Positions 5,850-57,520 of a stretch of DNA of 64,000 nucleotides are shown piece by piece. Under the pieces are notes generated by a model, which did no database searches, had not been told where the DNA came from, and saw nothing but the letters and a program-made list of their open reading frames with translations. The position numbers were made by a program, and so were the translations under genes. Numbering within the stretch: position 1 is the stretch's first letter; the number at the start of each line of letters is the position of its first letter. This stretch comes from Azolla caroliniana (Eukaryota > Plantae > Polypodiophyta): positions 3,596,001-3,660,000 of the forward strand of contig JBHGNT010000016.1 in the NCBI GenBank assembly GCA_043228905.1, read 5' to 3'.

Positions 5850-6978
5850 TACATAATATAGTCTCTTGGCAATACTGATTTCAAGATATGCTGGAAATGA
5901 GTGTGGGGAGGATGCTCTAAAATGCCACTCACGTAGACATTCAGAAGGTATATCTCCTAATGTCGTGGCTAGTATTCGAGTAGTAGAAAAAGGACAATAA
6001 GTGCACAACAGTATATGCAAATAGGGTTTGAAACATGATCTTGTAATTAGTAATATGCTCGTTGATATGTATGCAAAATTTGGATTACTTGAAACTACTC
6101 AAGTAGGTTTTTGGATCATGTTCCAGCTCGATTTGTAGTCTCTTGGAATGCATTGTTCACTGGCTATATTCAATTTCACAATTGTGATAAGGTCTTTGTT
6201 TATTTCAAGTTCATGATCAAATTGCTAGAAGGGGATTTGTGAGAAGGATGTTATGTTATGCTTGAAAAAACACAAAAAGTGCATGGTGAGCTTCTTGTTA
6301 AGACTCTATACTCTTCGAATCACTAATTACTCTTGTTAGAAATGGTTACAAAGGAATGAACTATTTCTAGAAGATGCAAAGTGAGGGTCTCTCACTAGAT
6401 AGGATCACATATATTTGCATCTTGAAGGCTTGTGGAAACACTAGATCTATTGTAAAAGGGGAAAAGATTCATGATGATGGTATAAATAAAGGTCTCTTCA
6501 TGGAGGAGGATATCATGCTCAACAATGCTTTGGTGAATGCAAAAGATTGATTGGAAAAAGATCCTTTTGTTGGTACCGTAAATGTGGAGCAATAATTGAA
6601 GCCCAAGAGCTTTTTTATGATTTATTGTTGGTTGGAGATGTGGTACAATGGCTTGCCATGTTATTGGGCTATATTGAGCATGATAAGAATGAGGATGCTA
6701 TCCTTGAATGCTTGTGCAAGGTCTCTTACCTAATATGATGGCATTTTCTGGTATGTTGAAAGCATGTGGCAACATGGGAGAATTGGTAGTACATACTGAA
6801 ACAAAATTAGATTTTGAGATGGATCTCAATTAAATGAAGGATCCATGGCTAGCCATTGTCTTACACAAGCTGGGCTTGGGAAGGATAATCATTTCTTTTC
6901 CATCTATTTTGTAGTTTGTAGCTGATATGCCTTTTTTAAAACTAATGGAAGGATATTTTGTTTTGAAAAAAGAAGAAG
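5850..6978 (+). pseudogene. Degenerate PLS-class PPR fragment mosaic ending in a shared LINE-like 3' tail (copy A)
   Basis: Translatable motifs LVDMYAKFGLLE (~6057), VVSWNALFTGY (~6135) and LKACGNTRSIVKGEKIHD (~6422), with frameshifts and stops. The last ~140 bp plus A-rich tail recur at ~21830, ~40000 and ~56090 (minus). Confidence 0.75.
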
Positions 6979-7119
6979 AGGGAAAGCCAATCGAGTTACT
7001 CTAGTGTGCACTGTGGACCCAAGTATAAATCTAGGAATTTAAGGCTTGGGAGCGTGGTGATGTGCTTTGAGAGTTTATCCTTTTAGATATATATGTATGT
7101 AGATAGATATATGTGTACC

Positions 7120-7162
7120 GAGTGAGTGAGTGAGTGAGTGAGTGAGTGAGTGAGTGAGTGAG
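7120..7162. repeat. (GAGT)n microsatellite
   Basis: Directly visible. Confidence 0.95.
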
Positions 7163-15707: not shown

Positions 15708-15965
15708 CTTCTCTGGCTAGGTCCATGTGCTAACTATAGCCATGGAAACAATCATCAGCAATGACCATCAAATAGTAGATGAACTGAACTACTCTAGCCT
15801 TAAGAAGCCTTAATAATGTTATTATGTGTATGCTAACTTCTCTGGCTAGGTCCATGTGCTAACTATAGCCATGGAAACAATCATCAGCAATGACCATCAA
15901 ATAGTAGATGAACTGAACTACTCTAGCCTTAAGAAGCCTTAATAATGTTATTATGTGTATGCTAA
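15708..15965. repeat. Apparently perfect 2 x 129-bp tandem duplication (intronic)
   Basis: CTTCTCTGGCTAGG...GTGTATGCTAA begins at 15708 and again at 15837. Confidence 0.95.
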
Positions 15966-16421
15966 TAGCACAATTGATCCTACTGTACCATAAATTAACC
16001 CTTAATATTGTATGTTCATATGTTCCCATGAAATATGTTTCACGCAACTTTTGGTCTATATCCAAACCATCACAATCCAATGTGTGTTTAAAACCCATCA
16101 AATACTTAAACATCCTACTCTAGCCTAAATTAAGATACAAAAGTGTGATTATGCAAATAACATCACATATAAACACAGGAATATAATCTAAAGACATCTT
16201 CAGAGGCTACAGAATAGCTGATGAGACTACTCTACCATAAACTAATATCTAACAATGTACAATGTGGCCAATCCAAATAGTTTACTCTACCATAATCTAA
16301 AAGTGATGATCCTACTCTTGACTAAACTAGCCTCTGATAATCTAATGATGAATATATTAATAACATGGGCACATGAAATGAAAACATTACTGAAAACCAA
16401 CTTTATGGGGGGGATACTGAC

Positions 16422-17261
16422 CTTTTTCAAAGTATGCGCAATAAGTTTACTTTGAAGTTTGCCCAGGTGATCTAAACAAGCTCTTGCACACCGAAAAGCA
16501 TGTTCTTGCATTGAGGCAGACATGTCCGCTGCCTTTATCCGGACCCGGAGCTCATTTGCCAAAGCATCTATATCAATTTGTGGTGTAACCTCTTCATAAA
16601 CACGATCAGGTGGTGAATCCAATGATGTCATTTCCATCTGTAGAAACTTAGAGTTCATTTCCATGGGTAGAATCTTAGGTTCTATTTCTAAAGGAAGAAA
16701 CTTAGGGTCCATTTCCGTGGGTAGAAACTTTGGATTCATTTCCATGGGTAGATAATGAGGATGCATTTCCACTACGTCCAATCCTTTCACGCTACTACTT
16801 TTCATCCTTGATGATGATAATGAACATGATCTCTCTAACATTCCACATATGATTTCCTTGTGATGCTCTGGTGAATCTTCTCTGATGTGATTCTTCTTCT
16901 TGTTGCTATTGCTGTTGTTATGGTTATTAAAGATTTCCTTATCTGATAAGAAACCTTTGAGAGACTGTTCATTTGGAAAGTAATACTCTTCTTGTTGTCG
17001 TTGTTGTTGTTTCAAACCATTCTTTTCATCCTCGTTTTCAAATCTAGTGTCTGAAGCTACCACTTTCTCTGGAATCATCATCTTCTCTGCTACAGAAGAA
17101 GATTGCTTCTCTTCTCTGATAAAATTAGGATTAGGGTTTTGATCTCTTTGTTGGACCCTTCCTTGCCTAACTTTAGCTTCATATTTCTGAATCCTTGCAA
17201 CAAATCTGCTTCTCATAGCTGCATTCATCATGCTAGCAGCTCTCGCATGTCCAGAATCCAT
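16422..17261 (-). CDS. Dynein light chain type 1 (LC8 family) protein with long N-terminal extension, exon 1
   Basis: First ATG at 17261 (the ORF track starts at an upstream TTG). Ends VRIKAADMSASMQEHAF...LIAHTLKK|GTCAGT, phase 0, joining exon 2 across a 4670-bp intron for a 333-aa product. Confidence 0.9.
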
Positions 17262-20152
17262 GGGGGAAACCCTAAGAAAAGAGGAAATACTCAAATATGG
17301 AAAAACCTAAACGCAGAACGCCTCAAATCTTTAAACCCACCTAACTTTATGGCCCAGAGCAGACACCACAAGCCTTAATTTGAGGATCCTAGCAGATAAA
17401 GACGCAAATGTAAAACACAAATCTTGAAAACCCTGACGAAGAAACCAAAATCTGCACTACCCTACAACAGGAAGACAAGACCCTATTTCTGAAAACACTA
17501 GCAGAGGAAAAAGAGAACTCAATGTTGCAAATCTGGAAACCCCAAATATTGCATAGAGAAACCCCAAAATCTGACAGAGAAATATAAAGCCTAAACTTGA
17601 AATTTCTAGCAGAGGAAATCCCTCGATCTAGGAAATGGAGGGACCTAATATTGGGAGCCTAGCAGAAGGGCAGATGGGCATAACAGAGAAAAAGGGGGGG
17701 ATAGTTTCTGGTGTTAGGAGCTGCTGATGGTGTCTTCAACAAGAACAAAAACAGATGAGGAGGAGGAGGAGGAGGAGGAGGAGGATCCATGGTGTGTCCT
17801 TTCCTTGCTCAGACACAATATGAGTGTTTCCTCTGCAAATGCTACAGTTCTTACCAATAGTCTCACTCCTCCTCTTCTTGTTCTTCTTACACCAAGCATG
17901 TGGGCTCTACTGGCTTTTTTAGCATATGTGGATTGGAGGAGGAGGGGTTTCCTATGCCACCACACATCTCCTTCAGGACCATGCCAATGTATTGTACATA
18001 TCCTATCAAGAGTCCGATCCAACAGACCCATCATCTGTTGTAGACCCATCATCTGTTATCGTCCCTCCCTCTCTCATGAATCTTGAAAGACCTGCAAAGA
18101 ATAACCCATCCTCGTCCCCCACGAAATCAATCATCCGTCGCAAGCCGGTCGAAGTGGCCTGATCTCATTGAAAAGCGGGGATTATGTCTGCCAGGAATTA
18201 TTTTTATGTCTATCTTGCTCTAATAAGATAGCAATTGGGGTACACACAAACGTTTCCATGAGCCATGGATCCGCGCATTGCATGGCTTGGTGGACGGATA
18301 TACATTTATCCTATTATATGTGGCACGAATTCATTGGTCGCTATCAAAGTGGCACTTGAGCGCCCAACTTGTTGTACAAGGGCCCGACTCAATGAAAATA
18401 CACAATGGTGTGGCACAAAAATCATTAGCCCCAAGGAACATACATTCGAGCATGAATCACATTATCACTTACATTCAACACAAAGGGAGAAAATCCACGA
18501 CTACATGGCAAACAATAACTGGCACAACAATAGAAATGGGCCACATAGTGATTGCACGTACTTGTGTCCAAACAATAGTTCACAATGACATGATACAAAA
18601 TCATTGGTCATAAGAATAGTATTTGGGGTCACATCATGTAGTAAGGCCCGATTTATATGTGAACATACGCATTGGAATCCAAAGTGTAGAAACAATTATG
18701 TATGGATCCTAAAAATGTCATGCATCGATCATGTTGAAATCAAGTTTGGTTCATACTTACTACACATAATCACTCCCATCACAAAATTACATTTAGCCAA
18801 ACATAAAATTGCATTAAGAATGGTGTCGCATTGATTACCTAGAAGGAAATCCATGATGATTTGGCAAGACAAAATCGTTGGTTGTGGGTAAAGTAGGGCA
18901 AGGCGAAATCATTGGTGATGAGTATAGTGGGAGACAAAATAATGGGTTGCAAGAGAATTCAGGCAAATAACCTATTTCAAACTAAACAATCGAAGGAAAT
19001 AACGTTGATGTTACAAATTCCCATCGAAGTGAAGTGGACAACATTAATGCACACAAGTTCAAACTAAACAACATGGCGGAAATCCATTTTGATTTAACAC
19101 AAAATCATCAATCTCACTCACTAGACAAATGTGAACGTCTTCGTGTAAAGCATAACAAAAAGAACTACAAGCAAGGAAGTGTTCCACGTATGCATATCAA
19201 ACCCAAACAAGGCTATTCAACAACTAGTCTCATCTCCATTCTATGTGAATCATTGGATTCTTTCTTACATATGGTAATCTTAATTTGCACCCAAATAAAT
19301 TCGTATCCTCTTGCAAAGCTTTCGGGAAATTTGAATCTTTTTGGTAGATCTTTGTGATTCAACCAAAATTGTCCTCACACTAAATAAATTCCAACCTCGG
19401 TTCTCTTTAATAGTGGGTCCATCTCGTTGCTTTAGAATTGGAGGGCATAAGTATGCCCTCCATTTGCCCAATTGTTGGTCGTCTTCTTCATTGTCATAGT
19501 GACACTGGCACGTGACCGCTACTTAAAAGTTGATCACATATTTATCTAAAAACTCAATAAAACCATATTGGGGCACACCAAGATGTAATAATTCATACTC
19601 ATGCTATACTTTTTACCAGCATTGCATGAGAAAGGCAATGTTATTGTTTCCAATAGTGAGTGCATTGTGAAAATGAATATGTATAATAGCCATGTTGTAA
19701 TGAGAAACTATCAATCTTTTATTCTCTTAGATAAGTGCAAACATGGGGAAGGGAGTACTTTTGTTTCCAACCCTTGGGGGTTGTGGAAAACTGAACTTGT
19801 ATAAGTTTGCACGATCCTTTGATAAGATAAAATGATTTTGGATTCACTTACCTTGGACGAATGTAGTGCTATTATGCCAATAGAAATTATTGATAAAGGT
19901 GCATTTTCGGGACAAATTTTGTGCAAAATTTGGATTTGATTAGCTTGGATAAGTACAAAGGCAATGGTTTTTTGTCATGCTACTATTTTGCGACAGAAGT
20001 ATTTATAAAGTCATGAGTATCAATTGGTGGATAGAAATAAAAACATGATTGGTTGTACAACCAATATGGGGCTTACTAGGTTTAAGTTCATGACCCAAAC
20101 CCTAACAATCGTCGCTTACCTTAAGAACAAAGTCTTGTTATAGCAAAAATAA

Positions 20153-20418
20153 TTGTACCAAACATAGAGGTAGGTGCTGAATTGTGAAGTGATTGGAGGG
20201 TGTCTTTGCTGAATGTGGGTTGTGTGAGGCTCATGTTGAGGGGAGTATGTCAAGTAATTCTGTGACGAGGCTTTGTTGCTTCATTTATACATGATGTTTT
20301 CTTGTAGCCATTGCAAAGTGGCTTGTAACATACGAGTTATATATTATCCTATGTACTTTTTCTTAACTAATGGAAGTAGAATTTTTTTTGGAAAAAAGAA
20401 AAAAGAAAAAAGAAGAAG
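20153..20418 (+). mobile_element. 5'-truncated LINE 3'-end copy with 24-bp target-site duplication
   Basis: AAAGTCTTGTTATAGCAAAAATAA at 20129-20152 and 20419-20442; A-rich tail; body matches 46719-46990. Confidence 0.88.
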
Positions 20419-20986
20419 AAAGTCTTGTTATAGCAAAAATAACTATTGGCAATGCAATTAAGTTTTAGAATTTAAGAAAATATAATTTGTGATGCTAACT
20501 TTCTACTCTTTACAATTTGTGAATTTATATGTTGTAAAGCTATTATTTAAGAGCAGCTTAGTAGTGTGCTGGATCACAAACTAAAAACGTGAAGTGTTTT
20601 TACATGGATGCACAATCAAAACCATGACCTCAATGCTCAAAACCCAATACTTACAATACATTGTGATGTTAAGGTTTTTAAAAATTTTGCTTTAAACTAG
20701 TATTGTGAAAATCTCTAAGTAATAAAATTTGGCGATGTTTAAAGGATATTACTTTACTAATGAATGTCATAATTGAGAGTGCACACTATGCCAATGAGAA
20801 ATCCATGCGATGATTGGCTTTGGTTGAAGATGTGTGGAAAGCATAGTCAAATGTGATCAATGGCCAAGCATTGTATCAAGGTGTGATACTCACACTCCCT
20901 ATGTAGAGTGAGAGGGCAACATTATTGTATGGTTTTACATACAAATAGTTTATTGTGTGGTTTATACTAGAGAGAGAGAGAGAGAG

Positions 20987-21080: not shown

Positions 21081-21659
21081 GAGAGAGAGAGTAGACTTTG
21101 ACAGTCCACAAGGAGGCCAAATTGACATTTTTGACCAAATAAACATATCATCTTGTATTTGGCCCCTTGTTAAAAAGGGCATTATTGTATTGTATAGTAA
21201 AAATTGTCTGTTATAAACTCTCTATGTGAATAATGATGACAAATATGTGCTCATTGTTCTAAGCATGAAATTGGAATTATCATGCTTGTCCAACAAGTCA
21301 TCATAATATTCCAAATTTTGTCTTGTGATGAGTGTTAACATCTCGCCAGTTTTGACATTATAATATCTTCACGATATTTATCTTCCCATAATATGTAATC
21401 CCTATTCAATTTCTAGACGAAGATTTTGCAGAAATGTTGGCAATAAAGGATAAGGAAATGTTTACAGTTTAAGGGATGAATAAAGTATGAAGTTCACGAC
21501 ATGGAATGAAAGAGGGTATGAGTTTCCAATTTGCACTAATTTCAAAATATTATATATGTTTTATTTGATATGTATGCAAAAAACGGTATTGTAACACAAG
21601 CACAAGAACAGTTTGACAAGCATCCAATCCAAAGTGTAGGTTTGTGGGTTGTATATATT

Positions 21660-21972
21660 TGGATATGTTGAACATGAACATGATGAGGAAGATTGTTTTG
21701 CTTCCAGCATATGCAAATTCATGGTAGTATTTAACAGGCTTTCAGTCTAGGAACATGTCTCTTGGAATGCAATGAGTGTACGATATGATGAGAATGGGAA
21801 ATTTGATGAAGTGTTCAATCAAGTCTATCAAACGAAGGATTCATGGCTAGCCATTGTCTTACATAAGACAGGCTTGGGAAGGATAGTCGCGTCATTTCCA
21901 TCTATTTGCATTTTGCAGCTAATATGCTTTTTAAAACTAATGGAAGGATATGTTTTTTTGAAAAAAAGAAGG
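21660..21972 (+). mobile_element. PPR-mosaic plus LINE-tail repeat, copy B (short)
   Basis: Similar to 39895-40135 and to the reverse complement of 56090-56320; includes a VSWNAM PPR motif. Confidence 0.75.
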
Positions 21973-21989
21973 GTATACGTTCCCATTTT

Positions 21990-22477
21990 TTTAATTTTTT
22001 TTCCAAAAAAAAACCTCCTTCCATTAGTTATAAAATTTTGCAAATGAGACGATTATGTACAAATCCCTGAAGGGACGCTATAGTTCCATCTTATGTGGAT
22101 GCCCACTGACTCAAGAAAGGGAGAGAACGACCATTGTTGGATGAAGGCTATTCGTTGTCTTTTAACTCCATCAGAGCCGCCCTTAAGGCCATCATATTGG
22201 CTCTTCAGAGTGGCTACAATTTCACTCCATATCTCTTGTAGTAACCTTGTTGGATGTGTGGTTTGGTTGGAGAAGACTCGCCTACATCATTGTTTCCATA
22301 GAATCCAAAGAGTTATTGGATTGACCAATTCCAACACCTCTTGAGATTTGTCATTAAGAGGAGTGGAGTGGACATTGCCGCTGGAGGAGAAAAAGACCTC
22401 TTGTGCTTTTATCACCAAAGTCATCCCCTCCTCTCGATGCTCGTATCTGCCAATTGCGGTCTACCGTGATAGCCAAC
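21990..22477 (-). mobile_element. L1-like LINE 3' part (ORF2 C-terminus and tail), left half of the LINE split by Copia
   Basis: Minus frame ITLWILWK...EIWSEIVATLKSQYDGLKG...IRWNYSVP parallels the other LINE ORF2 ends in this window; tail AACTAATGGAAGG...AAAAAAA. Confidence 0.8.
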
Positions 22478-22910
22478 TATAAAAGAATACGTTGTGCGGA
22501 AGCGTGTGCGTAAAACGTAGAGTACAAAGTTCGGAAGAATGAGACAGTTCAGTAAACACAGAAAACACAAAGATGGAGAGGGAGAGATAGAGACAGAGAC
22601 AAAGACAGAGAGACACTATATATCAAAGTCAAAATAATTCTCTGTTCTATACATACTTCGTGCTCGGTGAGCAGCTTATCTAATAGCCTTGACAATCGGG
22701 CTAACACAAGTACTGACAGTACTTGACCGCTCATAAATGAGCCGACTACACAAACTCCCAAAATTATTCCTTTACGAGGAATAACGCTCTAACGGCCTCT
22801 TCGGTTTTCACACTGATGCGGCCCTGTTGTGCGTACTTTTTCACGCACCCAGTCTATGCACTGGGTTACGCTGCATACTTCGCATCGAATGTTGAGCTTG
22901 TCTCTCAACA
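22478..22910 (-). repeat. 3' LTR of outer Copia
   Basis: Matches 32925-33345; adjacent to the PPT (minus-strand TTGAGGGGGTG). Confidence 0.9.
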
Positions 22911-22980
22911 CACCCCCTCAAGCTCAACTTGAGGTTCCACTTGCTTCGCCGGATCTACGCTCCGGCTTCTCCTCCTGCCT

Positions 22981-23355: not shown

Positions 23356-23459
23356 GATATCGAAGTTGAATTCTCCATCCGACTCTGCATCACGGTCACT
23401 TCCATCGTGATGCTTACCTCCGCTCCTTTCACGCTCTTGTCCCTATTCTTCCTTTCTCC

Positions 23460-25197: not shown

Positions 25198-25199
25198 TT

Positions 25200-25777: not shown

Positions 25778-25808
25778 AAGTGGTATCAGAGCGACGGTAA
25801 CACAGAAA

Positions 25809-29882: not shown

Positions 29883-29892
29883 AGGGGGAGTT

Positions 29893-32817: not shown

Positions 32818-32924
32818 ATCTGTTGTCTTTTCCTTTTCCGAAAAATGAAGAACAACTTCAACTCTGTTTGTCACAAGTTTTTCCTGTCGGCTATAGAGGA
32901 CTTCAACCACCCTTGCGCTCTGAT

Positions 32925-37185: not shown

Positions 37186-37189
37186 GGAG

Positions 37190-39604: not shown

Positions 39605-40140
39605 GTATTGGATGGTGTCATGAAGCACGGTTGATGTGCAGGCAACATGTGGAAGGTTATTAGATGCATATAAACTGTTTGAAGGGCTAAGATCCCTTAA
39701 AGTGGGTGTTGATCACATGGTTGTACATGACGACATGTTCATACATGCTGGAATCATGGATCGAGGCATACAAAATTACCTCTATACCATAATGCTTTGA
39801 TTGAGTTTTACGTTGAATATGAAAAATAGAGGATGCTTGGTCATTGTAAATCTTGGGGTATATTGGATGCATGTGATGACCCAAAGGTGGTATCGGGAAA
39901 TGTTGAATATGAACATGATGAGGAAGATTGATTTGGTTTGAACATATGAAATTTCATGGTATGTTTCAACTATTGAGGAAGTGTTCAATCAAGTCTATCA
40001 AAAGAAGGATTCATGGCTAGCTATTGTCATACATAAGACGGGTTGGGGAAGGATAATCATCTCCTTTCCATCATTTTGTATTTTGTAGCTAATATGGTTT
40101 TTTTTAACAGGATATGTTTTAAAAAAAAAAACTAAAAAGA
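39605..40140 (+). mobile_element. PPR-mosaic plus LINE-tail repeat, copy C
   Basis: Colinear with the reverse complement of ~56090-56750; ends in poly-A. Confidence 0.8.
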
Positions 40141-45429: not shown

Positions 45430-46990
45430 GATACCTTAAAGTCGATAGAGGGAAAGATGCTTGGCCAGAGCAAGGGTATGAAGTGGCTATATTGCATTGT
45501 GCAGGGATTCATTCAATGGCAGATTGGATGCAGATGTCCGCTAGTAATCAGGATAAATTATATGAAGACACGAGAAAGTTCAGAAATGACAAGAAATGCT
45601 TGACCTAGTCAATACAATTGTTTACTCTTTTCCTATTAGTAATGGGGAAGAGGGTGAATGGTTTGGAGAATATGATGACACGGGAAAAATTATCGATGCC
45701 AAAGGTCTAGGAAAGAATGGGAAGATCATCTAGTTGGGATCAGTAGATTCAAGAGCTAGTTGGTCCCTAATTAGAATTGTGGCACTAGACGGTAAGAAAT
45801 GGAAGGTGAATCCATCAGTCGATGAGGTTGAGGAGGATTGGATCTTGTATGTAGTTGAAGGCAAGCCACTCGAGTGTTTAGAATGGGATCTTGCAGAATA
45901 TACGTGGAGGGGAGAACAACATAAATTAAGAGGTTTCTTTGACTACTCAACACGCTTGGGGAGAAAGTTATGCTTGCATTGTGAGAAGTGTGCCAACAAA
46001 CGGACCCATGTAGCTGTCGATTCAGTCTTCATGGATAGAAATAGGAGCAGAATATGGAACTCATCCCTCCTCGAGAGGCTCAAGGTGCTTTTTTGGTTAA
46101 TCACCCATTGGGTTGTTCCAACCGGAGAGTGGTTGGGGAAAAGGGGTGGCATGAGTAATTCCAAGTCTTGTGGAGCGAGTTTGGAGGACATCGACATTGT
46201 TTGTGGAGCTACCCACGTGCCCAAGAAGTTTGGATGAGGAGCTTAAGAATTTTGGCTCGATGTAGGGTTGTTGAAGTTCAGGTATCAAGCACAACAGTTG
46301 TTTGGTTAGCAACTAAATCGGCTATGTGGTTTCATGGGTGGAATCGAAATCGTCCTTCGTTAAAGGTGATGCATGGAATTGTACAACCTTTAGCTCTAGG
46401 AGGTTCATTCTACATACAGGAACGATACGTAGATATTTGGTTTTTAGGGGCCGGCCTTACTGTTTGGCAAGTGTGGGTATCTAGGTGCAAGGAGTCGTTT
46501 ATTGGTAAGCGAACCCCATTGGTTGAGAGTTTAATGATGATTTGGTTTAATCTTATTTCTACGTTACAAGGAGAGTTTGACAGCCTTCATGGGCCCTCTG
46601 ACGCGAGTGAAGAAGCGAGAGCCCGTTTCCTTCTAAAACGGAGAGGTTCTCTAATGCTGTAGATGGTGGATGGCAATGCAAAGTGGATTTATCACCCTGG
46701 TTATTGATTCTTCTAAGGGTACCAAACATAGAGGTGGGTGCTGAAATGTGAAGACATTGGAGGATGTCTATGAGGAATGTGGGTTGTGTGAGGCTCAATG
46801 ACATGTTGAGGGGATTCGGTTGAGTAATATTATGTGCATCGGATAGTGAGTTTGAGTCTTTGTTGATTCCTTTATACATGTTGGTTTCTGTGTAGCCATG
46901 CAAATTGGCTTATAACATATGAGTTGTAAATTATCCTATATACATTGTCTTAACCAATGGAAGTAGTAATTTTTTTTGGAAAAAAAAGGG
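45430..46990 (+). mobile_element. L1-like LINE 3' portion (zf-RVT, 3' UTR, A tail)
   Basis: RIWNSSLLERLKVLFWLITHWVVPTG, HCLWSYPRAQEVW, LTVWQVWVSRCKESF; tail ACCAATGGAAGTAG...GGAAAAAAAA. Confidence 0.85.
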
Positions 46991-47089: not shown

Positions 47090-47321
47090 GATGTAAGAAG
47101 TTAAATGTGCACTTGGGAAGCAAAATGCATGTTTTTTATAAGGATGAGTGCCGGTGGTGTGGGGGTTGAAGCAGAATCTATTAAGAAGACTAGACTCATT
47201 TAGTTGTTTGTATGTATAGGTTTTGGCAGTAATAGGTGAGAAGTTGATGTGGACTTGATGACGCAAAATGTATGTTTTTGGATAAGGATGAGTGATGAGG
47301 TTATGGGGGACGAAGCATACT
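47090..47321. repeat. Degenerate tandem repeat (left part), interrupted by the Gypsy insertion
   Basis: GTTTT..ATAAGGATGAGTG.TG.TG.TGTGGGGG..GAAGCA units here continue at 53272-53730. Confidence 0.65.
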
Positions 47322-47755
47322 TGTTAACTCTTCGGGCCGGACAATGGCCTAACACAGGGTGTCTACATGAGACACTTCACCAAAGGGTGTTACGGCAACC
47401 GGATTAAACTTCAACGCTTAATCCAACTTAGTTAAGTTACTTATTAGGATCGTCTTTCATAACACGCGTAAGATATAACAATTAAGACAGAACGGCAATT
47501 AACACAGAGAGATAACAATGCTTAAGCTTTCATTAATTAACCACTAACTATTACATTGTATCCGAGCCTTTAAATAGGTTTCCGGTCTGTATTACAAAAC
47601 GGTGCCATCTGCACCTGTTCGGGATCGGTCCGGATCCGGAACGGCATACCGATTCCGGTCCGTCCGTCCACACTCATAGCTTAATTACAACCACATTCCT
47701 ACTACTTAATTAGCTCTCTGTTTCCCACTCTGGACTCCTTTGCCGGCCGGTAACA
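47322..47755 (-). repeat. Complete Gypsy LTR (434 bp)
   Basis: TG...CA ends with terminal inverted TGTTA/TAACA; its last 177 bp match 53095-53271 with 3 differences seen. Confidence 0.92.
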
Positions 47756-47757
47756 CA

Positions 47758-47774
47758 TGGCACGCCCATGGGAC
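47758..47774 (+). promoter_or_regulatory. tRNA-Arg(UCU)-type primer binding site-like sequence, antisense to the coding strand
   Basis: TGGCACGCCCATGGGAC starts 2 nt after the LTR end; it resembles the complement of the plant tRNA-Arg(UCU) 3' end (...GUCCCACYGGGCGUGCCA, recalled, not searched). Confidence 0.7.
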
Positions 47775-47809
47775 AGTACCTTGTACGTCAAATCTACAAC
47801 TAACCCTTG

Positions 47810-50806
47810 CTATTCTTCGTCCAAAATGTCCAGAATGCTTTGTTCGAGAGGCTCCAATGGTTCATCTGGAAGTGGTTGTTGTTGTTGTTGTTGTTGTTGC
47901 TCTGTTGCTGTCTGCTGCGGTGGGTCCGTTGGTGGTTGCTGCGGTTGCTCCTCCGTTTGTGGCTCTGACACCGGCGTCTCCGTCGTTGCTCCCTGCGTCG
48001 TAGTGGTCTCCGGTTGACTGGTTCCCGGCAGGCCCTCAGCCGGCGACGGTTCCTCATCACTAAGGTTAACCGTTGTCGCTTCCCGTGCTTTTTCTGCCCG
48101 TACCCGGGACCGCTCGTAGCTTTCAAACTGGATTTGAGTGTCCAACCTATCATCGTCCAGCTGAGCTACGAGCTGCCTGACCTGCACCAGCTGTTCATCT
48201 GCCAGGACTTGGAAGTCGTCGGCCAGCTCGTCCCGTATGGCGGTGAAGTCCTCGGAAATCAACGTATAACAGTCATCTCCTTCCTTCCGCCGGTTTGCCA
48301 CATCCGCCCGTAGCAACTAGAGTTCCGCCGCGTTTTGTGCCCACTTTGTCCACCATTTTACGGAGCTTTCATCAATCAAGTGTTTCGTCTGATTCAGCCA
48401 TGCCAGGAGGATGGACTGAATCCGGCTCGTTCCCAATTGCGATTTGGTTTCCGCCGCTTGCCGTTCCTCCTTCAGTTGTTTGATGATTTTGACGTTGTCC
48501 TCCGCCTGCGCCTTGTAATGCGTCAATTGCCTTTAATATGTACTTTGTAATTTCTGCAATACTGTTGACGCTCTCTCTTTGTCTTCTTGCTGCTGCCTCT
48601 AGAGCTCCATCTGGACCTTCTCTGCCTCTTCCAAGCGTCTTGTATTTTCCGCCCATTCGTCGGCGATCGCCATCGCGGCCCGATCAACTGCCTGCTGGAG
48701 CTCGGCCATCCGTTCTTTATGCTCTGTTTCCAGCCGTTTGTAGTCCTGGTGCAGGTGCTCAAAATCATCCGTCTTTTGCTTGAGCCGTGCATTGATCTAA
48801 CGACGGGCCCGGTCCTCGCGGTCCTTCTGCTGGCGGAGCTCTTCCTTTAGCCGTTCAATCTTTGTTTCTGCCGTTTTCCGCAGCTTGTCCTTTTCCTGCA
48901 GCACTTTGTCTTTCTCCTCCTTTAGCCGGTCGTACGCTTGATGGCCTTTCCGGAGGCTCTCCTCTGCCCGGCGGAGGTTCTCAGCAGTCTTCTTTAATTC
49001 GGCTTCGGCCGCCGTCTTCAATTCTCGTTCACGGCTCCTTAGCGCTTCTTGTGCGGCAAGTTCCTCTCTCAATTCCGCAAGCTCCCGAGCTTGCGCCGCA
49101 TCTCTCGCCGGAACGGTTTCCGTTGCCGGGGTCTTATTGCTATGTACAGGTCGTTCCGTTTCTTTATTCTGTACACTTACCGGAGTCACCGGTGATTGGA
49201 TCCGTATTTTGGCCATCTCTATCGTGACCTGATCCAAATCTTTTTCAAGGCACCGGATTCTGGACCGGGCCGTCTCTAGTTGTTCGGTTGTGACGAGCAA
49301 CCGTTCGCTTTGCGCTCTTTCTTCCGCCTCTATATACCCCACTGCTCCGGCTATCTGTTCGCCTATCCACCGGAGCCATAGGCTACCGGTGCCTTGTTGT
49401 GCTTGCACGGAGGTTTGATAGATGGACTCACTTGTAGAGGGGTGGTCCCGCCTGGTTGCGCCGAGTTGCAGTTCCTTTTCTGCCCATGGACCATCTTGCT
49501 GTCCTGGTTCCCTTTGCGCTTCTTCTTGGCTGACCGAGGGAGGCTGTAGTGACCTTTCTGGCTCTGGCGGGATGGGACTTGCCGGTGTTGCCGGTGGTGC
49601 CGGGGCTTCTGTTTCTGGTGCCATCTGCACCGGTTCCGGTTCCTTCCTTGGCGTGGGAGTCTCAGTCTGGGGAGCCGGTGTTCCCTCCGTCTTAGGGTCC
49701 GAACGTTTCCCGGCTGTCTCAACGGTCCTTGCCGACGACCGTCGCTGGAAGTGCTCCGTAGGCTCCTCCTCTATTTCCTCCTCCTGAGCTCCGGCATTGA
49801 GTTTTGCCGCCAAGGGGTCCACTTCTCGATTCACCGGTCGGCGGAGTGTGACCTTTACGGGCCGTGCCGGTGGTTCCTCCAGCGCCTCTGTTGGGCGCTT
49901 CCGGCTTCCGCTTCCTGTTGCCGCCTGTTCTGCATCCACCGCCTTTCCCTTACTGGCCTTAGAGGCCAACATCTGTTGCCGTTTGGAAGCCGTCCTTGGG
50001 GTGCCGTCCGGCACTCTTCCTCGCTTCTTGGGCTGGACGGTCTGAACGGGTGGCACCAACAAGGTGAGCCACTGCGTTACGGCATGCCATATCCTTCGTC
50101 CGTCTCGGCCTTCTTTGCCGTCTTTGCCTCTGACGATCTCGATCGCCGCACACAACCCATCTGCAATCAATACCGGCCAATCCACCTTGATCCCTTCATA
50201 GGTGGCGATGATCATCCCTGCCCGGTTCTGCGGCATGACAGGGGGTCTAGGGTACACGTGGCCGTATTCATGGAGCACACGAGCAATTTCGCGGAACAAC
50301 ATATCCCCGCCGCCCTGTGTCCGGTAGCCCTTGCTGGCTAGAGAGTACTCACCAAAATACCTGATGAGTTGCTCCGGGGTTGGATTGTCGATCGTGAGTA
50401 TGCCTCCCTCCGGAAGGCCTGTTAACGCTCGAATCGCCTCTGCCGTTATGACCTCTGTATCGATTTCCTTGATCACTTTGTCGGCTTCTTTGTGTTGCGG
50501 TACTTCCATCATCATCAAGAAGCCCTCAAGCCCGTGTTGCTTCAGCCATGTCTTGGCGGCTTCCGACAGCGTTTGCGGGTCCATCTCTGTGTCGGGGTCG
50601 GATTGCGGTGACGAGGATGGATGGTGATGAGAGCGGGGTTGAGAAAGAGAGAGTTCAGAAGGCGGGGGTTCTCTGTGCGCAGGTTCTCGTCTGATGATCT
50701 TGCAGCGTTTCGATGCTTCTGTGCTCCTGGGTTCGCGAAAGTAGAGGGTCTCTATGCGCAATGGTTTTTGTTTGTGCATTTTGGCGCCTTTTTCGAGTTT
50801 GTGCAT
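47810..50806 (-). pseudogene. Gypsy accessory ORF downstream of integrase (globular N-domain, P/E-rich linker, long coiled coil, Q/E-rich tail), disrupted near its 3' end
   Basis: 669-aa open frame at 48797-50806, continued by pieces to 47810. ITAEAIRALTGLP and IKVDWPVLIADGL resemble the 'putative plant transposon protein' domain of Athila-type extra ORFs. Confidence 0.75.
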
Positions 50807-50953
50807 GTCGCGTACTTAAAATAGCATTATGTCCTGTGGTGGCGCTTTAAATGCCCACTACGTACCTTTTCGCTCCACGCTCTTTCCTCCATTCATTCCT
50901 CGTTTTTGCATGATTGTTTTTTTTTTTCAGTTATTATTATTATTAGTGTGACG

Positions 50954-52818
50954 TCACATGTCCGTTGGTCCTCCCGGACCCTTACCGGCATCATTCTCTC
51001 TGGTTCCCGACTTGCCGTCTCTGCCGTCTTGGTGGTTGCCATCGGTCCTTTGCTCAAACGGGTTCTTAGGCATCGGTCCTCTATATGCCTTTAACCGGAA
51101 TCCGTTGACCCATTTGCCCAGCACTTCGCCGGCAAGTGTCCCCAACTGGTAGGACCCATTATACTCCCGTGTTAGCCAATATGGTCCGGTCCATCTAAAC
51201 CTTAGTTTACCCGGCATCTTGCCCATCCGGGTTTGGAATACTAACACTGGTTTGCCGATTGCGAACATTTTTTCGTTACCTTTCCTGTGCCGGTCGACGA
51301 ATGCTTTCCATCGCCGTTGCTCCAATTCTAAATGTAGGATGCTGGCCAACCGTTATTCCTCTAGCTCACACAGCGCTGTCAACCTTATTGTCTCCGACTC
51401 CTTCTCGTTCAGTCGTTCTCGTAGCTGGATCCGTAAGCTAGGTACTTGAAATTCTACCGGCATGACCGCCTCGAGTCCGAACGCCAACCGGAACGGTGTT
51501 GTTCGGATGCTCGTTTTGTATGTCGTTCGGTATGCCCAAAGCGCTCTATGTAGCTTTGTGTCCCAATCCGTCCGGTTCTCGTTGACGATCTTCCGAAGGA
51601 TGTTCTGGAGCGTCTTGTTTGTTGATTCCGCTAATCCGTTCGCCTGTGGATAGTAAGGTGTGCTTCGTTTGTGGACCACGGCATAGAAGGTTGTTAGGCT
51701 TTCCACTACTTGTCCGAGAAAGTGACCCCCTTGGTCACTTATCAATTCAATGGGGCATCCGTAACGGCACCAGATGTACTCATATAGAAACTTTGCCGTT
51801 GACGCAGCAGTGTTATCCCGTAAAGCTTTGGCCTCCACCCATTTCGTGCAGTAATCCGTAGCAACGATAACGTACCGATTACCCGTTCTCATTGCCGGTG
51901 GCTTGAACGGTCCTACAAAGTCCAGCCCCCACTTTTGGAATGGCTCGAGTGGTAGTACCGGCTGGTGTGGCATACGAGCCTGCTCCATTGGCTGGCCCAT
52001 TCTCTGGCATAGGTCACATTCTTTTGCGTACCGTACCGCATCTCTTAATGTCGTTGGCCACCATAGGCCACTTTGCCATATTTTTCTGGTTGTCGCATCT
52101 CCGGCATAGTGACCTCCGGCAACTCCGCAATGGGCTTCCCTCAGTATCAGTTCCTTTTCATCGTTGCGCACCGCCCGTCTCCATATGCCGTCCGCGCCCT
52201 TGTGGTACAGTGTGTCTTGCAGTAAGCAGAAATGTCAGCTTTGTACCGCCAGGCGTTTCCGTTCGTCCCGGTTCAGTTCTTCCGGAGGCAGTCCTGTGCT
52301 CAGAAACTGGTGCATATTTGTGAGCCACTTGTCTTCCTGGGCCACTGTCTCATCTGTTGCCGTCTCCGTAGTGACTCGAAACAGCTCCGCATCCGGAAAC
52401 TCATCCGGTACTCCGTCACCCGTCTCTCCGGACTCCAATCGGCTTAAGTAATCCGCTACGGCATGCTGTATACCGGGTCGGTGGAATATTTCAAACTCGA
52501 ACTCCTGTAACAATAAGGTCCACCGGGCCAATTTGCCAGTGAGTGACGCCTTGGACACCAGGTAAAGGAGTGCCGAATGATCTACATGGAAGGAAAACTT
52601 CCTTCCCAATAAATAGTGCCGAAACTTTGTCACACTGTAGATCATTCCTAGAGCTTCCCGTTCCGTAGTAGAGTAGTTCCGTTCTGCTTGGGATAGCTTC
52701 CGGCTGGCATACTACATTGGCCGGTACCACTTTGGTTCCGTAAGCTGCATCAGTACGCTTCCGATTGCGATGTCGGAGGCGTCCACAAAACGTGAAATTC
52801 TTTACTCCAATCTGGAGG
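50954..52818 (-). pseudogene. Gypsy pol fragment: RNase H and integrase
   Basis: VDASDIAIGSVL, YYASRKLSQAERNYSTTEREALG, HHCC domain (EAHCG..GHY..CDLCQR), WGLDFVGP, YYPQANGLAE, RWTGPY; a few stops and frameshifts; no chromodomain. Confidence 0.93.
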
Positions 52819-52827
52819 TCCACGGGT

Positions 52828-53097
52828 AGGACAACAGGATGGTCCACGGGCAGAAAAGGAACTGCAACTCGGCGCAACCAGGCGGGACCACCCCTCTACA
52901 AGTGAGCCCATCTATCAAACCTTCGTGCAAGCACAACAAGGCACTGGTAGCCTGTGGCTCCGGTGGATAGGCGAACAGATAGCCGGAGCAGTGAGGTATA
53001 TAGAGGCGGAAGAAAGAGCACAAAGCGAACGGTTGCTCGTCACAACCGAACAACTAGAGACGGCCCGGTCCAGAATCCGGTGCCTTGAAAAAGATTT
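52828..53097 (+). repeat. 270-bp inverted copy of 49236-49505 filling the Gypsy deletion
   Basis: The same peptide QAQQGTGSLWLRWIGEQIAGAV appears on opposite strands; about 9 substitutions by eye. Confidence 0.93.
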
Positions 53098-53271
53098 CCG
53101 GTCTGTATTACAAAACAGTGCCATCTGCACCTGTTCGGGATCAGTCCGGATCCGGAACGGCATACCGATTCCGGTCCGTCCGTCCACACTCATAGCTTAA
53201 TTACAACCACATTCCTACTACTTAATTAGCTCTCCGTTTCCCACTCTGGACTCCTTTGCCGGCCGGTAACA
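53095..53271 (-). repeat. Truncated Gypsy LTR (outer 177 bp only)
   Basis: Equals 47579-47755 and is followed by TSD ATACT. Confidence 0.92.
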
Positions 53272-53730
53272 ATACTCTCATGAGGGGATGAGGAAAAAAG
53301 ACTCATGTATTGTTGTATGCATAGGATTTTGGTGGTATTCGGCGACATGGATGATGTGAACTTAATGACATAGGATTTATGTTTTAGATAAGGATGAGTG
53401 ATGATGGTGTGGAGGTCGAAGCACATTCTCATGAGGAGATGAGGAATTTAGACACATTTTCTTGTTTATGTGCAGGAATTTGGCGTATTCAACAATGATG
53501 GTGTGGAGGTTGAAGCACATTCTCATGAGATGAGGAATTTAGACACATTTTTTTGTTTATGTGCAAGAATTTGGTGTATTTGGCAAGATGGTTGATGAGG
53601 ACTTAACGAAGCAGTTTTTATGTTTTTTGATAAGGACGAGTGATGATGGTGTGGGGGCGAAGAATATGCTCATGAGGAGAGGAGGAAACTTGACTTAATT
53701 TGTTGTTCTATGTACAGGATTCTAGTGGTA
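53272..53730. repeat. Degenerate tandem repeat (right part)
   Basis: Repeated GATAAGGATGAGTGATGATGGTGTGG and CATGAGGAGATGAGGAA units. Confidence 0.7.
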
Positions 53731-54122
53731 ATCCGGCAAGATGGTTGATGGGGAAAGAGGAAACATAGTTGTTGACTACAATCACAGATGTGGAAAGTGG
53801 TCTCTTGAAAAACCAAAGAACGTGATCATCATCAAAACCGAGATCTACAAGTTGAAGAAGCATTGAATGGCACATAACTATGACCTCAGATGGTTTATTT
53901 CCAAGAAGAAGAAGAAGATAAATGTGCAATCAAAAATGCAATAGGCTTGGTGCCATAACAATATAAACAAAAAAGGAGATTGATCATGCCTAACATGAAA
54001 AATAATACAATCGGCCACATGCTTTAAATATCATATTGGCGTTGTACATATGAGGAAAAATAATTGCTTAACCCTTATTTAAATTGCATATTATTTATTT
54101 ATAAAACCACAATACGCTTAGC

Positions 54123-54482
54123 AAGACTTTTGAATTTTGTAAGTCCTTTGAGTCATTCAAAGTCCATCTTTAACCATGTCGCTAACATGTATATCAGTTG
54201 ATTCATCATAAAGAAACATGATGCCTTCAATAGTGTGCCTTTGTTGATTCATGATCGATGCTTAATAACTCTTTTCTAAATTAATCATCCTTGCAAATTG
54301 TCCCGTAAAGCAGTTGTGAAGACTTTTGAATTTCGTAAGGTCCTAAGGTCCTTTGAGTCATTCAAAGTCCATCTTTAACCATGTTGCTAAGATGTATATC
54401 GGTTGATTCATCATAAAAAAAACACAATGCCTTCAATCATGCACCGTTGTTGATTAATCATCTTTACAAATTGTCCCGAAAG
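54123..54482. repeat. Diverged tandem duplication, about 2 x 190 bp
   Basis: AAGACTTTTGAATTT...GTCCTTTGAGTCATTCAAAGTCCATCTTTAACCATG at 54123 and 54319. Confidence 0.85.
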
Positions 54483-56069
54483 TGTTTGCATGCCTTATCA
54501 TAAATAGTCATATTGTAATGACCAACAATAAGCCCCAATTGGGATATTTTCCAATTCTCCCAATATAACATGGTGTAATGAATAGTAAAATGTGCGCTTT
54601 ACGGCATTGAGGCAATGAATTCCAGACATGAGCTACAAGTGTGATATTTTATTCATAAAAAAGTATTTGTAGATCTAGTTTTGGATCATACACACTAATA
54701 TGTTGCTCATAACAAAGGGCTTAACAACTTTGATATTGTCATATTTTCCAATGTACAAACACCACCAATTCTTTTCCAAAGGCAATGCCTACAAATTGTA
54801 GTAATAAGTGGAGTATTCATGGTTCATTTGAAATCATGAGATTGGACAACTCCAATATTGTTTTTTTAATCATAAACAAAAACATAATCATTTATTGGAA
54901 ATTTGCTTTTGCTCATTGTCCAAGGATATCTCTTGTTTTCCAAATGTTTATAGATCTAACAAACTCATATATCAAAGATTCCATGTAGACATGAAGTTTC
55001 AAACAAAACATCTTGTGTATAATGGTATCTTCAATATTTGTGCATTTTTGTTTAGGTTTTGAATGATTTTGCAACATGGTTGTCATATAATGAAATTAAT
55101 TGTTCAACATATAGACAATTTTTATTTATCTTTCACGTATTTTCCAACTCTACATTTGGAATCCCAAATATAAGGTATTTTACTTGTAGGCAATGCATTA
55201 TAATGTATCATGTGGTAACACCTAGGTACCAAAGCAACGTTGAATGCTATAGTATAATGGCAAATTGCAATGATTGCTCTCCTTCACATGTAAAGTTCAT
55301 TTACAACCATTTATGTAATCTTCGTTGTACATTGTTCACCCTCCCTAAATGGCACTTTACATATAAGCTTGAAACATAATGATCTATTTTACTTAAAATT
55401 TGAGAGAATCTTTTGTTGCTCAATGACAAATGCAATTGTTGTTCCTAGAAAAGAATAATCAAACAAAATGTTTAGGTACAAGCTAACTAGACCAATTATC
55501 AAAAATCGTCTATGTGGTTGTGATAATGATTTATGTTGGTCATTTAATTGGGAAAAAATTGGAATAATCTTGTGTTTATCCTTATTTTCCCATATGATGT
55601 TATGGTTTTCTCCACTTGTGGGAGTTACCATGATCATGGAAGGATTATTTACGAAACTCTTAACTAAGCATTATTGAATCTCTTAGATATGATCAATGGT
55701 TAACCCCAAGTTGCGAGTTTTTCTCCACACGTGTTCTTTGAGTGCACACTTTGTGATAGCATCCTAAATGAGGAGTAGCTAGTGTTTAACTCAACCATAT
55801 GCGTCGATGAGCTGTCAATGGTGTGACCATAGATGAGTAGGACAAAATATATTTAGGATAGAGAGAAATAGAGTAATGGGATTTACTAGTAAGAAATAGA
55901 ATAATATTCTCCATTGGCAAGTTAATATTTACTTAGCCTTGAAGAATGTATAATGTTACATTGACTTTAAGATAAGTACTATCTAGCACTAGCTTCTATG
56001 TGAGGAGCTAGGTAATTTAAATGACAAATCACTTGACATATAAAAGGAATATCCCCACCAATATCATTT

Positions 56070-57520
56070 GACTTTTTTTTATAAATGAAAATATATCCTT
56101 CCATTAGTTTTAAAAAGCATATCAGTTACAAAATATAAAATAGATGGAAAGGAAGTGACTATCCTTCCCTAGCCCGTCTTGTGTAAGACAATGGCTAGCC
56201 ATGAGTCCTTCGTTTGATAGACTTGATTGAGCACTTCCTCAATAATTGAGACATACCATGAATTTGCATATGCTCGAAGCAAATCAATCTTCCTCATCAT
56301 GTTCATATTCAACATATCCAGATACCACTTTTGGGTCATCTATTCCTCGAAGAACTTTACATGCATCTAATATACCACCACATTTACAATGACCAAGCAT
56401 CCTCTATTTTCCACATTCAACGTAAAACTCAAGCAGAGCATTAGGGTATAGAGGTCATTTTGTATGCCTCGATCCATTATTTCAGCATGTATGAGCATGC
56501 CTTCATGTAAAGCCATATGATTGGCATCGCATCCTCTATTTTCCAAATTCAACGTAAAACTCAAGCAAAGCATTATGGTAGAGAGGTCATTTTGTATGCC
56601 TCAATCCATGATTTCCGCATTTATGAGCATGCCTTCATGTAAAGCCATGTGATCAGCACCCACCTTGAGGGATCTTAGCCCATCGAACAGTTTATATGCC
56701 TCTGATAAACTTCCACATGTTGCATACCTATCAAGAGTGCTTCCAATGAGCATATCCAAGTTGATACCTAGTTGAGCGATGGCAAAATGGAGTTCTTTTC
56801 CTTTCTTTTAAATCAGATGTGTTCGAACATGAAAATCACATCTTGAATGCAAGATTTGAAGAACAATGACACCATCCATCTCATAAGAAGAAATGGAATT
56901 CTACATACATATCAATTAGCATACCATGTTCCACACCTTGCTTTCAAATACGATTGTGCACTTCTTGTCCTTTTTCTACTGCTCAAAAACATCCACATGT
57001 TTTCAAGTCACAAACAATGTGATGACATTCAAAGATATACCTTCTGAATGCATACATAAGTGCCATATAAAAGCATCCTCTCCCAACCTGTTTTCAGCCT
57101 ATCTTGAAATCAGTGTGGTCTTGAGTGTCTCCGCAAGAAAGTCACATTCCATATACAGCAAGACAGACAACTCCAACAATCACGTTATTTTCAAGTAATC
57201 CTTTCTTTGTTATCACCACATCCATTCCTTGGCCTTTGCTAACAACACATGCATGTCCACCTATTTTCAAGATACAAATCAGAGCTAAAGGATTGAGAAA
57301 GATACCGTAATCTTGCATAAACTCAACATAATTCTATGCTTCTTTATCTTGGTCATTCTCTACATATCCTCTAATGAATGAGGTCCAAAGCACCACATTT
57401 GAAGCCATGTGTAAAAATATTATCATTTTCAATTTTTAATTAGCTCATCCATTTGGACGAAACAGAAAAATTGTGTTCCCTTTCTATACATCTCCCATGT
57501 TGCCACATGCTTTCAACAAA
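56070..57520 (-). pseudogene. PPR-mosaic plus LINE-tail repeat, copy D (longest), with an internal 2 x 132-bp duplication at 56397-56660
   Basis: Minus-strand motifs VVLWTSFIRGYVEND and YATCGSLSEAYKLFDGL; 56955-57115 also matches 5875-6006; shared tail at 56070-56215. Confidence 0.8.

Follow-up and report, generated by a model that had tools for sequence, protein, structure and literature searches.

The window (i.e., the whole 64-kb stretch of DNA that was analysed) holds four copies of one sequence block, which an earlier note had located correctly and which proved 82–88% identical in pairwise comparison (E 1e-27 to 1e-53), with part of the tail core TTAACAGGATAT missing from copy 3. All four copies are 5′-truncated 3′ UTRs of two LINE families, referred to as LINE-A and LINE-B (Table 1).

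Table 1. Features of the four tail-sharing copies in the window.
Feature	Position	Strand	Description
5′ TSD of copy 1	5816..5829	+	12/14 identical to 6979..6992; exactly at homology boundary
Copy 1	5830..6978	+	5′-truncated LINE-B-type 3′ UTR: PPR mosaic, shared tail, A-tract
Shared block, copy 1	6826..6975	+	
3′ TSD of copy 1	6979..6992	+	partner of 5816..5829
Copy 2	21532..21972	+	5′-truncated UTR end
Shared block, copy 2	21803..21971	+	
Copy 3	39612..40132	+	5′-truncated LINE-A 3′ UTR end; 89–94% to LINE-A UTRs
Shared block, copy 3	39973..40131	+	
3′ TSD of copy 4	56056..56074	-	partner of 59427..59445
Shared block, copy 4	56072..56242	-	
Copy 4 UTR	56075..57675	-	1.6-kb PPR mosaic and shared tail, directly after LINE-A ORF2 stop
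LINE-A ORF2 3′ part (zf-RVT), broken	57676..59426	-	one insertion with copy 4; PF13966 E 1.2e-9
5′ TSD of copy 4	59427..59445	-	17/19 identical to 56056..56074

Homology of copy 1 with the other copies begins at ~5830, and its body was also found after LINE-B ORF2 in one locus (L296) and after the LINE-B UTR repeat in two others (L294 and L297), its initial 216 nt being 77–78% identical to the UTR of the LINE-B copies L039/L189. The final 250 nt of copy 2 matched full-length LINE-B (L216/L189) at 86–88%, while the module 5′ of them occurs in LINE-A UTRs too; a degenerate TSD-like repeat around this copy (~21511 / ~21968), missed by the two-mismatch scan, was recognised by eye. No TSD was found for copy 3, for which one contig of run X7 links 39611 to 40123 across single-copy flanks and thereby gives the empty site; a 17-nt repeat (38030/40150; score 13) was ruled out as its TSD given these empty-site positions.

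Copy 4, which had been thought to start at 57520, reaches as far as 59426, so that 1.75 kb of LINE ORF2 belong to it. Its mosaic holds a 132-nt internal duplication, and DNA identity to other LINE-A copies is 85–88% across the ORF2–UTR junction. Mosaic and ORF2 lie within one TSD; the mosaic belongs to the LINE itself as its 3′ UTR and is not, as the earlier note proposed, a separate non-autonomous element. Runs X1 and X2 contain contigs that lack 56059–59439, although these may represent paralogous empty sites because the flank is itself a repeat. No inverted pair of the Pack-MULE type was found bordering any of the four copies.

The shared block of ~140 bp described earlier holds for the copies in the window, but only the last ~55 nt of the tail are common to all family members. 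The tail occurs ~570 times, and its exact 18-mer core is above the genome mean in the window (3 in 64 kb vs. 360 per 523 Mb), a density to be read with the clustering of copies in chromosome arms and the choice of this window for showing copies in mind. Across 39 tails no consensus hairpin was found (single-sequence folds of nine tails were mixed, with z of -3.6 to +1.0 under a crude shuffle), and no pairing of the ORF1/ORF2 junction with the tail was found in six full-length A/B copies. The tail core that had been noticed in LINE fragments at ~20365, ~22020, and ~46955 is indeed present there (the last with one mismatch); because these fragments belong to a different, cargo-free family, with an ORF2 only 23–30% identical to that of A and B, they are not the partner LINE.

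Judged by their ORFs, A and B appear to be L1-clade LINEs, with ~50% RT identity to each other and with named relatives, by similarity, from Adiantum, Selaginella, and Riccia. ORF1 matched DUF4283 (E 1e-6) and zf-CCHC (E 2.8e-6) in L222 and, below the cut-off, DUF4283 (E 3.9e-4) in L209, while ORF2 matched RVT_1 (E 1e-27 and 7e-30) and zf-RVT (E 1e-8). The partial ORF2 pieces scanned gave no Pfam match for APE; relatives at 56–90% carry PF03372, and the start of the A/B ORF2 presumably resembles an APE start.

Six full-length elements (ORF1, ORF2, cargo UTR, and tail) of 6.4–9.6 kb were found within TSDs of 14–18 bp. Five of these (6353, 6812, 8275, 9029, and 9574 bp) emerged, together with three truncated ones, from 18 upstream/downstream pairs, and the TSD of the sixth (L224/L155; 16 bp) was recognised by eye. 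In L212/L195 (9574 bp) and L216/L189 (9029 bp), a single 14-bp TSD surrounds LINE and foreign RNA together. A 57-nt match of L211/L197 was dropped as not being a TSD, and the LINEs upstream of L068, L053, L063, and L088 were judged to be unrelated neighbours. Intact ORF1 plus ORF2 was present in none of 20 upstream regions (sampled from the top-scoring copies), the best ORF2 being interrupted by one stop (341+900 aa); a relative at 84%, intact over 1450 aa, is known only from public assemblies without context.

The stop-to-UTR join of copy 4 recurs as cargo junction in 29 of 39 LINE-A ORF2 ends, and the shared tail is reached in 26 of the 39, with UTR lengths from 0.42 to >2 kb. Four of the 39 have a short end that lacks cargo and carries another tail; this end is absent from all 29 cargo-junction copies. 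Among 20 LINE-B ends, nine lacked a strong match to the shared tail over 6 kb and had a weaker motif resembling it or none at all, and 11 LINE-B ends were without an alignment match of at least 55, several of them with motif matches.

With regard to PPR content, sense-strand Pfam matches were weak and confined to copies 1 and 4, the best of them (PF01535; E 1.7e-4) falling below the cut-off; copies 2 and 3 and six antisense control frames gave no PPR match. A PLS-triplet HMM made from 17 units of the genome's intact genes (reversed-sequence control maximum of 3.0 bits) yielded five matches in copy 1 (7.7–31.6 bits), one in copy 2 (11.3 bits), and one, at window scale, in copy 4 (33.5 bits). 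Copy 3 gave no HMM match, its link to PPR being DNA similarity only (87% to copy 4, and 87% over 63 nt to a module of L204). Across the genome, sense PPR sequence lay within 1 kb of the tail in 29 of 60 sampled tails, as opposed to antisense PPR in 1/60 and PPR in 2–3/60 control windows 4–6 kb upstream. One intact PPR source gene was identified (L315, with a 785-aa open frame), which is 92–94% identical to the cargo of L204 and whose 3′ UTR is also found there at 84%, whereas the next unrelated gene reaches 40% at the amino acid level; the L315-derived piece of L204 recurs in the Cullin subfamily. The cargo contained no intact PPR frame (longest 156 aa), and the shared tail was absent from 44 loci around PPR genes and from every intact PPR gene examined, so the suggestion that these elements are a source of PPR expansion is unsupported.

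Nor is the cargo PPR only, as it also includes pieces of Rab-GDI, starch branching enzyme (SBE), Cullin, and Fig4/SAC, and probably of NAT10. When the cargo of L193/L195 was compared with its host genes, nine gaps of the GDI gene (L261; GT..AG no more than 3 nt from the break in six) and five of the SBE gene (L262; GT..AG in four) were absent from it, the exons being 84–97% identical. Its order runs SBE, GDI, NAT10-like, GDI 3′ part with 3′ UTR, GDI 5′ part, SBE, and tail, and Cullin cargo is permuted likewise. Cargo joins fall mid-exon, without poly(A) or TSD, those of GDI and SBE at least 10–14 nt inside exons and away from splice sites. Microhomology at about six joins inspected by eye amounted to 1–2 nt for GDI/SBE and ~8–12 nt, imperfect, for L315. 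The missing introns, the interleaved and permuted pieces, and the lack of internal poly(A) indicate that the GDI and SBE pieces came from spliced mRNA, for which RT template switching is the most likely route of capture. Source genes for Cullin, SAC, and NAT10 were not found: the candidate Cullin gene matched the Cullin cargo at only 75% over 59 nt, and searching the genome for the NAT10 family gave no match. When 150 of the 298 non-redundant open segments without PPR were scanned with Pfam, only Cullin, GDI, and two LTR pieces emerged.

Insertion signatures across the genome corroborate the LINE-type mobilisation of a dispersed family, with PPR mosaics shuffled between subfamilies, that the earlier note had put forward. 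A TSD scan scored at least 13 in 24 of 60 unbiased loci vs. 4 of 300 flank-swapped controls; the calls at L034 and L084 were dropped as microsatellites. The remaining 22 have TSDs of 13–36 bp and inserts of 34–4165 bp, all with different 5′ ends, and 20 of them are without ORF2. Copies end in A-tracts, have unique flanks, and carry TSDs, unlike Helitrons, which have no TSD and TC...CTRR ends with a hairpin. None of the three contrary patterns that the earlier note had named fits what was observed, i.e., tails mostly without PPR sequence, copies sharing flanks and lacking TSDs, or enclosing Helitron or Pack-MULE termini.

Taken together, the cargo occupies the UTR position in sense orientation, TSDs surround whole elements, introns are lost from GDI and SBE, each mosaic has been amplified as a subfamily, and tail and cargo modules are common to A and B. 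The four copies are 5′-truncated insertions of two L1-clade LINE families whose 3′ UTR, from the ORF2 stop to the ~55-nt A-ended tail, is a patchwork of host gene pieces, mostly PLS-class PPR, which were probably captured when the RT, in the course of insertion, switched from LINE RNA to host mRNAs and then back. The empty sites of copies 3 and 4 speak for this reading; against it stand the lack of an intact copy among the 20 upstream regions, the short or imperfect microhomologies, the missing sources for Cullin, SAC, and NAT10, the nine LINE-B ends without a strong tail match, and the absent or degenerate TSD of copies 3 and 2, respectively. Reverse transcription would begin on the tail, and the RT would jump at short imperfect matches to at least one mRNA in the same particle before going back to a LINE RNA; a product retaining ORF1 and ORF2 could become a new source copy, with a UTR that later jumps, deletions, and duplications may rework. 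Most copies look like PPR plus tail because most insertions stop inside the long UTR. The PPR excess likely reflects the size of the gene family together with feedback, in that PPR sequence already in the UTR would give matches to other PPR mRNAs, and the cargo is most likely neutral baggage. A bolder version, in which such "Pack-LINEs" let the RT hop among co-packaged mRNAs many times per insertion, appears unlikely to us; here the PPR load would be self-reinforcing and useful to the element, since hundreds of UTR copies resembling essential organellar editing genes would make anti-LINE small RNAs also hit PPR genes, so that the LINE is shielded against silencing or PPR expression tuned, and in-frame jumps from one PPR mRNA to another would occasionally create new PPR genes.

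Tail and modules could equally have passed between A and B by nested DNA insertion, and such exchange would also be accounted for if the mosaics as a whole arose in this way, i.e., if a host gene first received a short tail that terminated its transcript, and the resulting tail-ended cargo copies were TPRT-inserted into a LINE UTR, the new tail replacing the old end in the next round. A short tail indeed lies in sense inside a PPR pseudogene (L076) and another behind another LINE's own tail (L053), and cargo joins LINE-A at a site rich in A. Nevertheless, this origin of the mosaics seems quite improbable, as the tail is absent from both GDI genes and the SBE gene (scores 24–28), and nested insertion does not yield GDI within SBE, pieces in permuted order, or joins that fall mid-exon and lack poly(A). 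Those GDI/SBE joins, lying inside exons and not at splice sites, likewise make it very improbable that capture proceeded by RNA ligation, trans-splicing, or cDNA-templated DNA repair in the LINE UTR instead of RT jumps; such routes have been proposed for human L1 chimeras (available text of PMC13174262) and give sense orientation, but repeated alternation of three RNAs within 2 kb is hard to obtain by splicing.

The high proportion of TSD-bracketed copies without ORF2 would suit a separate non-autonomous PPR retroposon borrowing a LINE tail, as would the fact that no intact autonomous copy was seen, so that current spread may partly be in trans. Since there is no fixed 5′ end, lengths are as expected from 5′ truncation of a 1–4 kb UTR, and LINE ORFs were reached from each UTR type that was followed far enough, we give such a retroposon hardly any credence. 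Least probable of all, and largely refuted, is classical 3′ transduction, in which transcription that runs past a LINE's weak end, into genes or retrocopies beyond it, would put spliced sense exons behind the LINE. A degenerate tail-like word 60–90 nt past the ORF2 stop in A and some B copies could be seen as such an end, but cargo-free LINE-A copies also have this word in an internal position, and it was rejected as the former end of LINE-A; moreover, the real cargo-free end is replaced, not retained, in cargo copies, and one common tail, not many host poly(A) sites, ends all mosaics.

If capture by RT switching is correct, A and B constitute a natural and dated archive of template jumping in which donor genes have been identified, and their RT would be worth assaying. 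Fern PPR counts have been based on ORFs of at least 300 nt (available text of PMC6786969), and the cargo, with segments reaching 156 aa, is a likely source of false PPR counts in fern annotations. The A/B UTRs also offer a testable route to PPR-matching small RNAs.

Mobile elements bearing gene-fragment mosaics include Pack-MULEs, Helitrons, SVA, and L1 with 3′ transduction. DNA-level capture retains introns and has TIR or Helitron ends, and 3′ transduction leaves the element's end in place ahead of the cargo; A and B fit neither. Closer parallels are found in LTR-mediated mRNA capture, including maize Bs1 (accessible parts of PMC5131818), which shares with A/B the partial intron-less pieces, several parent genes, short join matches, and further retroposition; there the cargo replaces the ORFs of a particle-packaged LTR element, whereas A and B are non-LTR and their ORFs stay. 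Like other plant L1-clade LINEs, A and B have an ORF1 with DUF4283/zf-CCHC, an ORF2 with RT and zf-RVT, an A-tail, TSDs, and 5′ truncation (PMC5203782, PMC3747384, as far as accessible), and their short conserved 3′ end across diverged elements recalls a maize/sorghum lineage described as having its last 45 nt conserved. They differ in their 0.4–4 kb UTR of host gene pieces and in having no consensus tail hairpin, and the accessible parts of that literature describe how ORFs gained domains, not cargo in UTRs (PMC5203782, PMC3747384). Our literature search, with most subscription journals, Repbase reports, and supplements outside its scope, turned up no account of plant LINEs capturing mRNA in their 3′ UTRs. 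The bipartite and tripartite WEIRD-MGL insertions of Magnaporthe (PMC2104539) and mammalian RNA/L1 and mRNA/L1 chimeras (PMC13174262; both as far as accessible) resemble A and B in fusing different transcripts in the same orientation within one TSD-flanked insertion, by single or double jumps, but most occur at one locus only and have the foreign RNA 5′ of their LINE part (PMC2104539, PMC13174262). In A and B, by contrast, the cargo is placed between the stop and the tail of two-ORF elements, derives from many mRNAs, and amplifies in subfamilies. DNA transposons and LTR elements are known to capture gene fragments serially and to amplify them, while LINE chimeras have mostly been single loci; as whole two-ORF L1 families with growing and shuffled mRNA mosaics in their 3′ UTRs, A and B would be serial collectors and spreaders of gene fragments.

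The four PPR-bearing copies had been regarded in the earlier note as a separate non-autonomous element that borrows a LINE end. The shared 3′ block was indeed present in all four (window self-BLAST), and the copies proved to be 3′ untranslated regions (UTRs) of LINEs: copy 4 is continuous with ORF2 of LINE-A, one of two L1-clade families, within one target-site duplication (TSD), and full-length elements with a UTR carrying host gene pieces (cargo) exist. Exactly 56075–59426 was skipped in public contigs, although the flank is itself a repeat. Copy 3 is a LINE-A member (89–94% identity), while copies 1 and 2 trace to LINE-B and also hold modules known from LINE-A UTRs. The claimed PPR content was borne out for copies 1 and 4 by Pfam (weakly, and in sense only) and more clearly, with copy 2 included, by a PLS HMM from this genome, and for copy 3 by DNA similarity alone. 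Among the DNA runs X1–X18, of which X1, X2, X7, X11, and X14 were examined, family sequence occurs in runs with several different organism codes. One contig of run X7 lacks copy 3 and presents the empty site, so at least this insertion postdates their split.

Features of the window, with TSDs, LTRs and neighboring elements
Feature	Position	Strand	Remarks
Copy 1	5830–6978	+	
Copy 2	21532–21972	+	
Copy 3	39612–40132	+	
Copy 4 with ORF2 part	56075–59426	-	19-bp TSD, 2 mismatches
LINE-B-type UTR tandem repeat	47093–47565, 53272–53900	+	79–93% to region upstream in L083; no tail seen
LTR element	47566–53271		splits the above repeat
UTR copy of other LINE family	20123–20442	+	5′-truncated, 243 nt; inside 30-nt TSD (96.7%)
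Parent type of 20123–20442	45600–46990		cargo-free 280-nt UTR, similar last 30 nt
Short tail of 45600–46990-type family	21986–22035	-	head-to-head directly behind copy 2, resulting in 39-nt inverted repeat
Copia element	25198–30470		identical 580-bp LTRs, open 1382-aa frame; nested in 22484–33346
Older LTR element	22484–33346		LTRs 90.7%
Lipid transfer protein, host gene piece	1934–2380	-	
Dynein light chain-like, host gene piece	16287–17306	-	
DHHC palmitoyltransferase, host gene piece	63124–63513	-	
Perfect 129-bp tandem duplication	15708–15965		

Both families have L1-type ORFs, their RTs being 50–57% identical and the remainder ~32%, and named relatives include Adiantum sequences. Full-length elements within TSDs measured 6353 and 6812 bp (LINE-A) or 8275, 9029, and 9574 bp (LINE-B), with one more read by eye; none of 20 examined copies was intact. 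A common cargo junction followed LINE-A ORF2 at 29 of 39 ends (30 plus 9 added) and the shared tail was reached in 26, while four ran without cargo into a different tail after ~150 nt and four had neither. LINE-A UTRs can be ranked as a series of deletions, from >2 kb (PPR-rich) down to 0.42 kb. LINE-B UTRs (1.9–4.4 kb) combine cargo with a tandem repeat and carry the shared tail too; of 20 downstream regions, nine matched the tail strongly within 6 kb and the others showed a weaker motif or none. A LINE-A variant (L234, L243, L247) differs in its UTR, which is ~600 nt long, and has a related tail.

Besides PPR, the cargo includes Rab-GDI (GDI; Pfam E-value of 1e-37), Cullin (8e-21), starch branching enzyme (SBE; PDB, 6e-56), and Fig4/SAC (4e-13), next to a weak NAT10 match (1e-4) whose host gene could not be placed in the genome. 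The GDI and SBE pieces of the 9574-bp element and of L193, its sister, match host genes L261 and L262 at 84–97%, and lack nine and five host gaps, respectively, of which six and four break at GT..AG bounds. Five carriers of such cargo are 92–98% alike, and a GDI search yielded a dozen or more carrier places. The GDI/SBE pieces are interleaved and permuted, with mid-exon joins devoid of poly(A) or TSD. In GDI and Cullin cargo, the 3′ part precedes the 5′ part in a nearly circular permutation, and SAC cargo seems arranged likewise, 3′ part first, judged by its domain order (carriers L193/L195, L083, L038); this order suggests that the copying enzyme jumped back to where the same mRNA ends (3′). 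A single PPR donor could be identified (L315, intact 785-aa frame), from which L204 holds 1.2 kb of coding plus adjacent sequence (92–94%) and further 3′ UTR (84%). Since a shorter L315 piece recurs in the Cullin subfamily, captures were serial; the direction of flow is from genes to LINEs. On contig C13, the SBE (20.036 Mb) and GDI (20.655 Mb) donors lie 0.62 Mb apart, with full-length carrier L195 at 20.87 Mb, 0.2 Mb from the GDI gene, reflecting either chance or local capture.

Throughout the 523-Mb plant assembly (22 large contigs), the exact tail 18-mer occurs 360 times (control: 0). Because it was exact in 37/59 tails recovered by other queries, the total would be about 570 copies, haplotig duplicates counted in. 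The bodies form several groups that have only the last ~55 nt in common; no shared structure was detected in the tail, which is likely a recognition or polyadenylation end (cf. PMC3747384). Tail matches on contig C1 avoid the chromosome middle (17 in 0–9 Mb, 2 in 9–26 Mb, 34 in 26.7–36.8 Mb). Very short copies of the tail lie in sense within a PPR pseudogene (L076:5400–6618) and directly follow the tail that belongs to another LINE family (L053:560–700).

Dispersed insertion, rather than shared-flank duplication, held up in the first 60 of at least 100 places listed, where flanks were unique. TSD scores reached ≥13 at 24/60 loci versus 4/300 swapped controls (22/60 once two microsatellites were dropped), bracketing elements of 34–4165 bp with all different 5′ ends. 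PPR sequence lay within 1 kb of the tail in sense at 29 loci and in antisense at one. No TIRs indicating Pack-MULE-type enclosure were found at the borders of the window copies.

The genome holds 989 E motif candidates and many intact PLS-E/DYW genes, which together with the Adiantum LINE relatives makes a fern the likely source. The earlier suggestion that the elements feed PPR expansion was unsupported in a small sample: the longest of 96 open cargo segments with a PPR match spans 156 aa, and the tail was carried at 0/44 loci around PPR genes (~37 distinct intact genes; 1.1–1.5 kb beyond the stop covered at 25 PLS loci, not always at P-class).

For the cargo LINEs, it is established that the pieces lie in the UTR and in sense, within the borders of a single insertion, that GDI and SBE pieces have lost their introns, that the old LINE-A end was replaced, and that modules are shared. 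Read-through transduction is very unlikely, because the old LINE end is gone from cargo copies. Nested insertion may explain exchange between LINE-A and LINE-B, but it does not give interleaved pieces. Such UTRs were most likely built by template switching during target-primed reverse transcription; microhomology at the joins was read by eye. In the literature searched, no paper described plant LINEs that capture mRNA in their 3′ UTRs. The analogues from which template switching is inferred are Magnaporthe double jumps (PMC2104539), mammalian L1 chimeras (PMC13174262), and LTR capture (PMC5131818).
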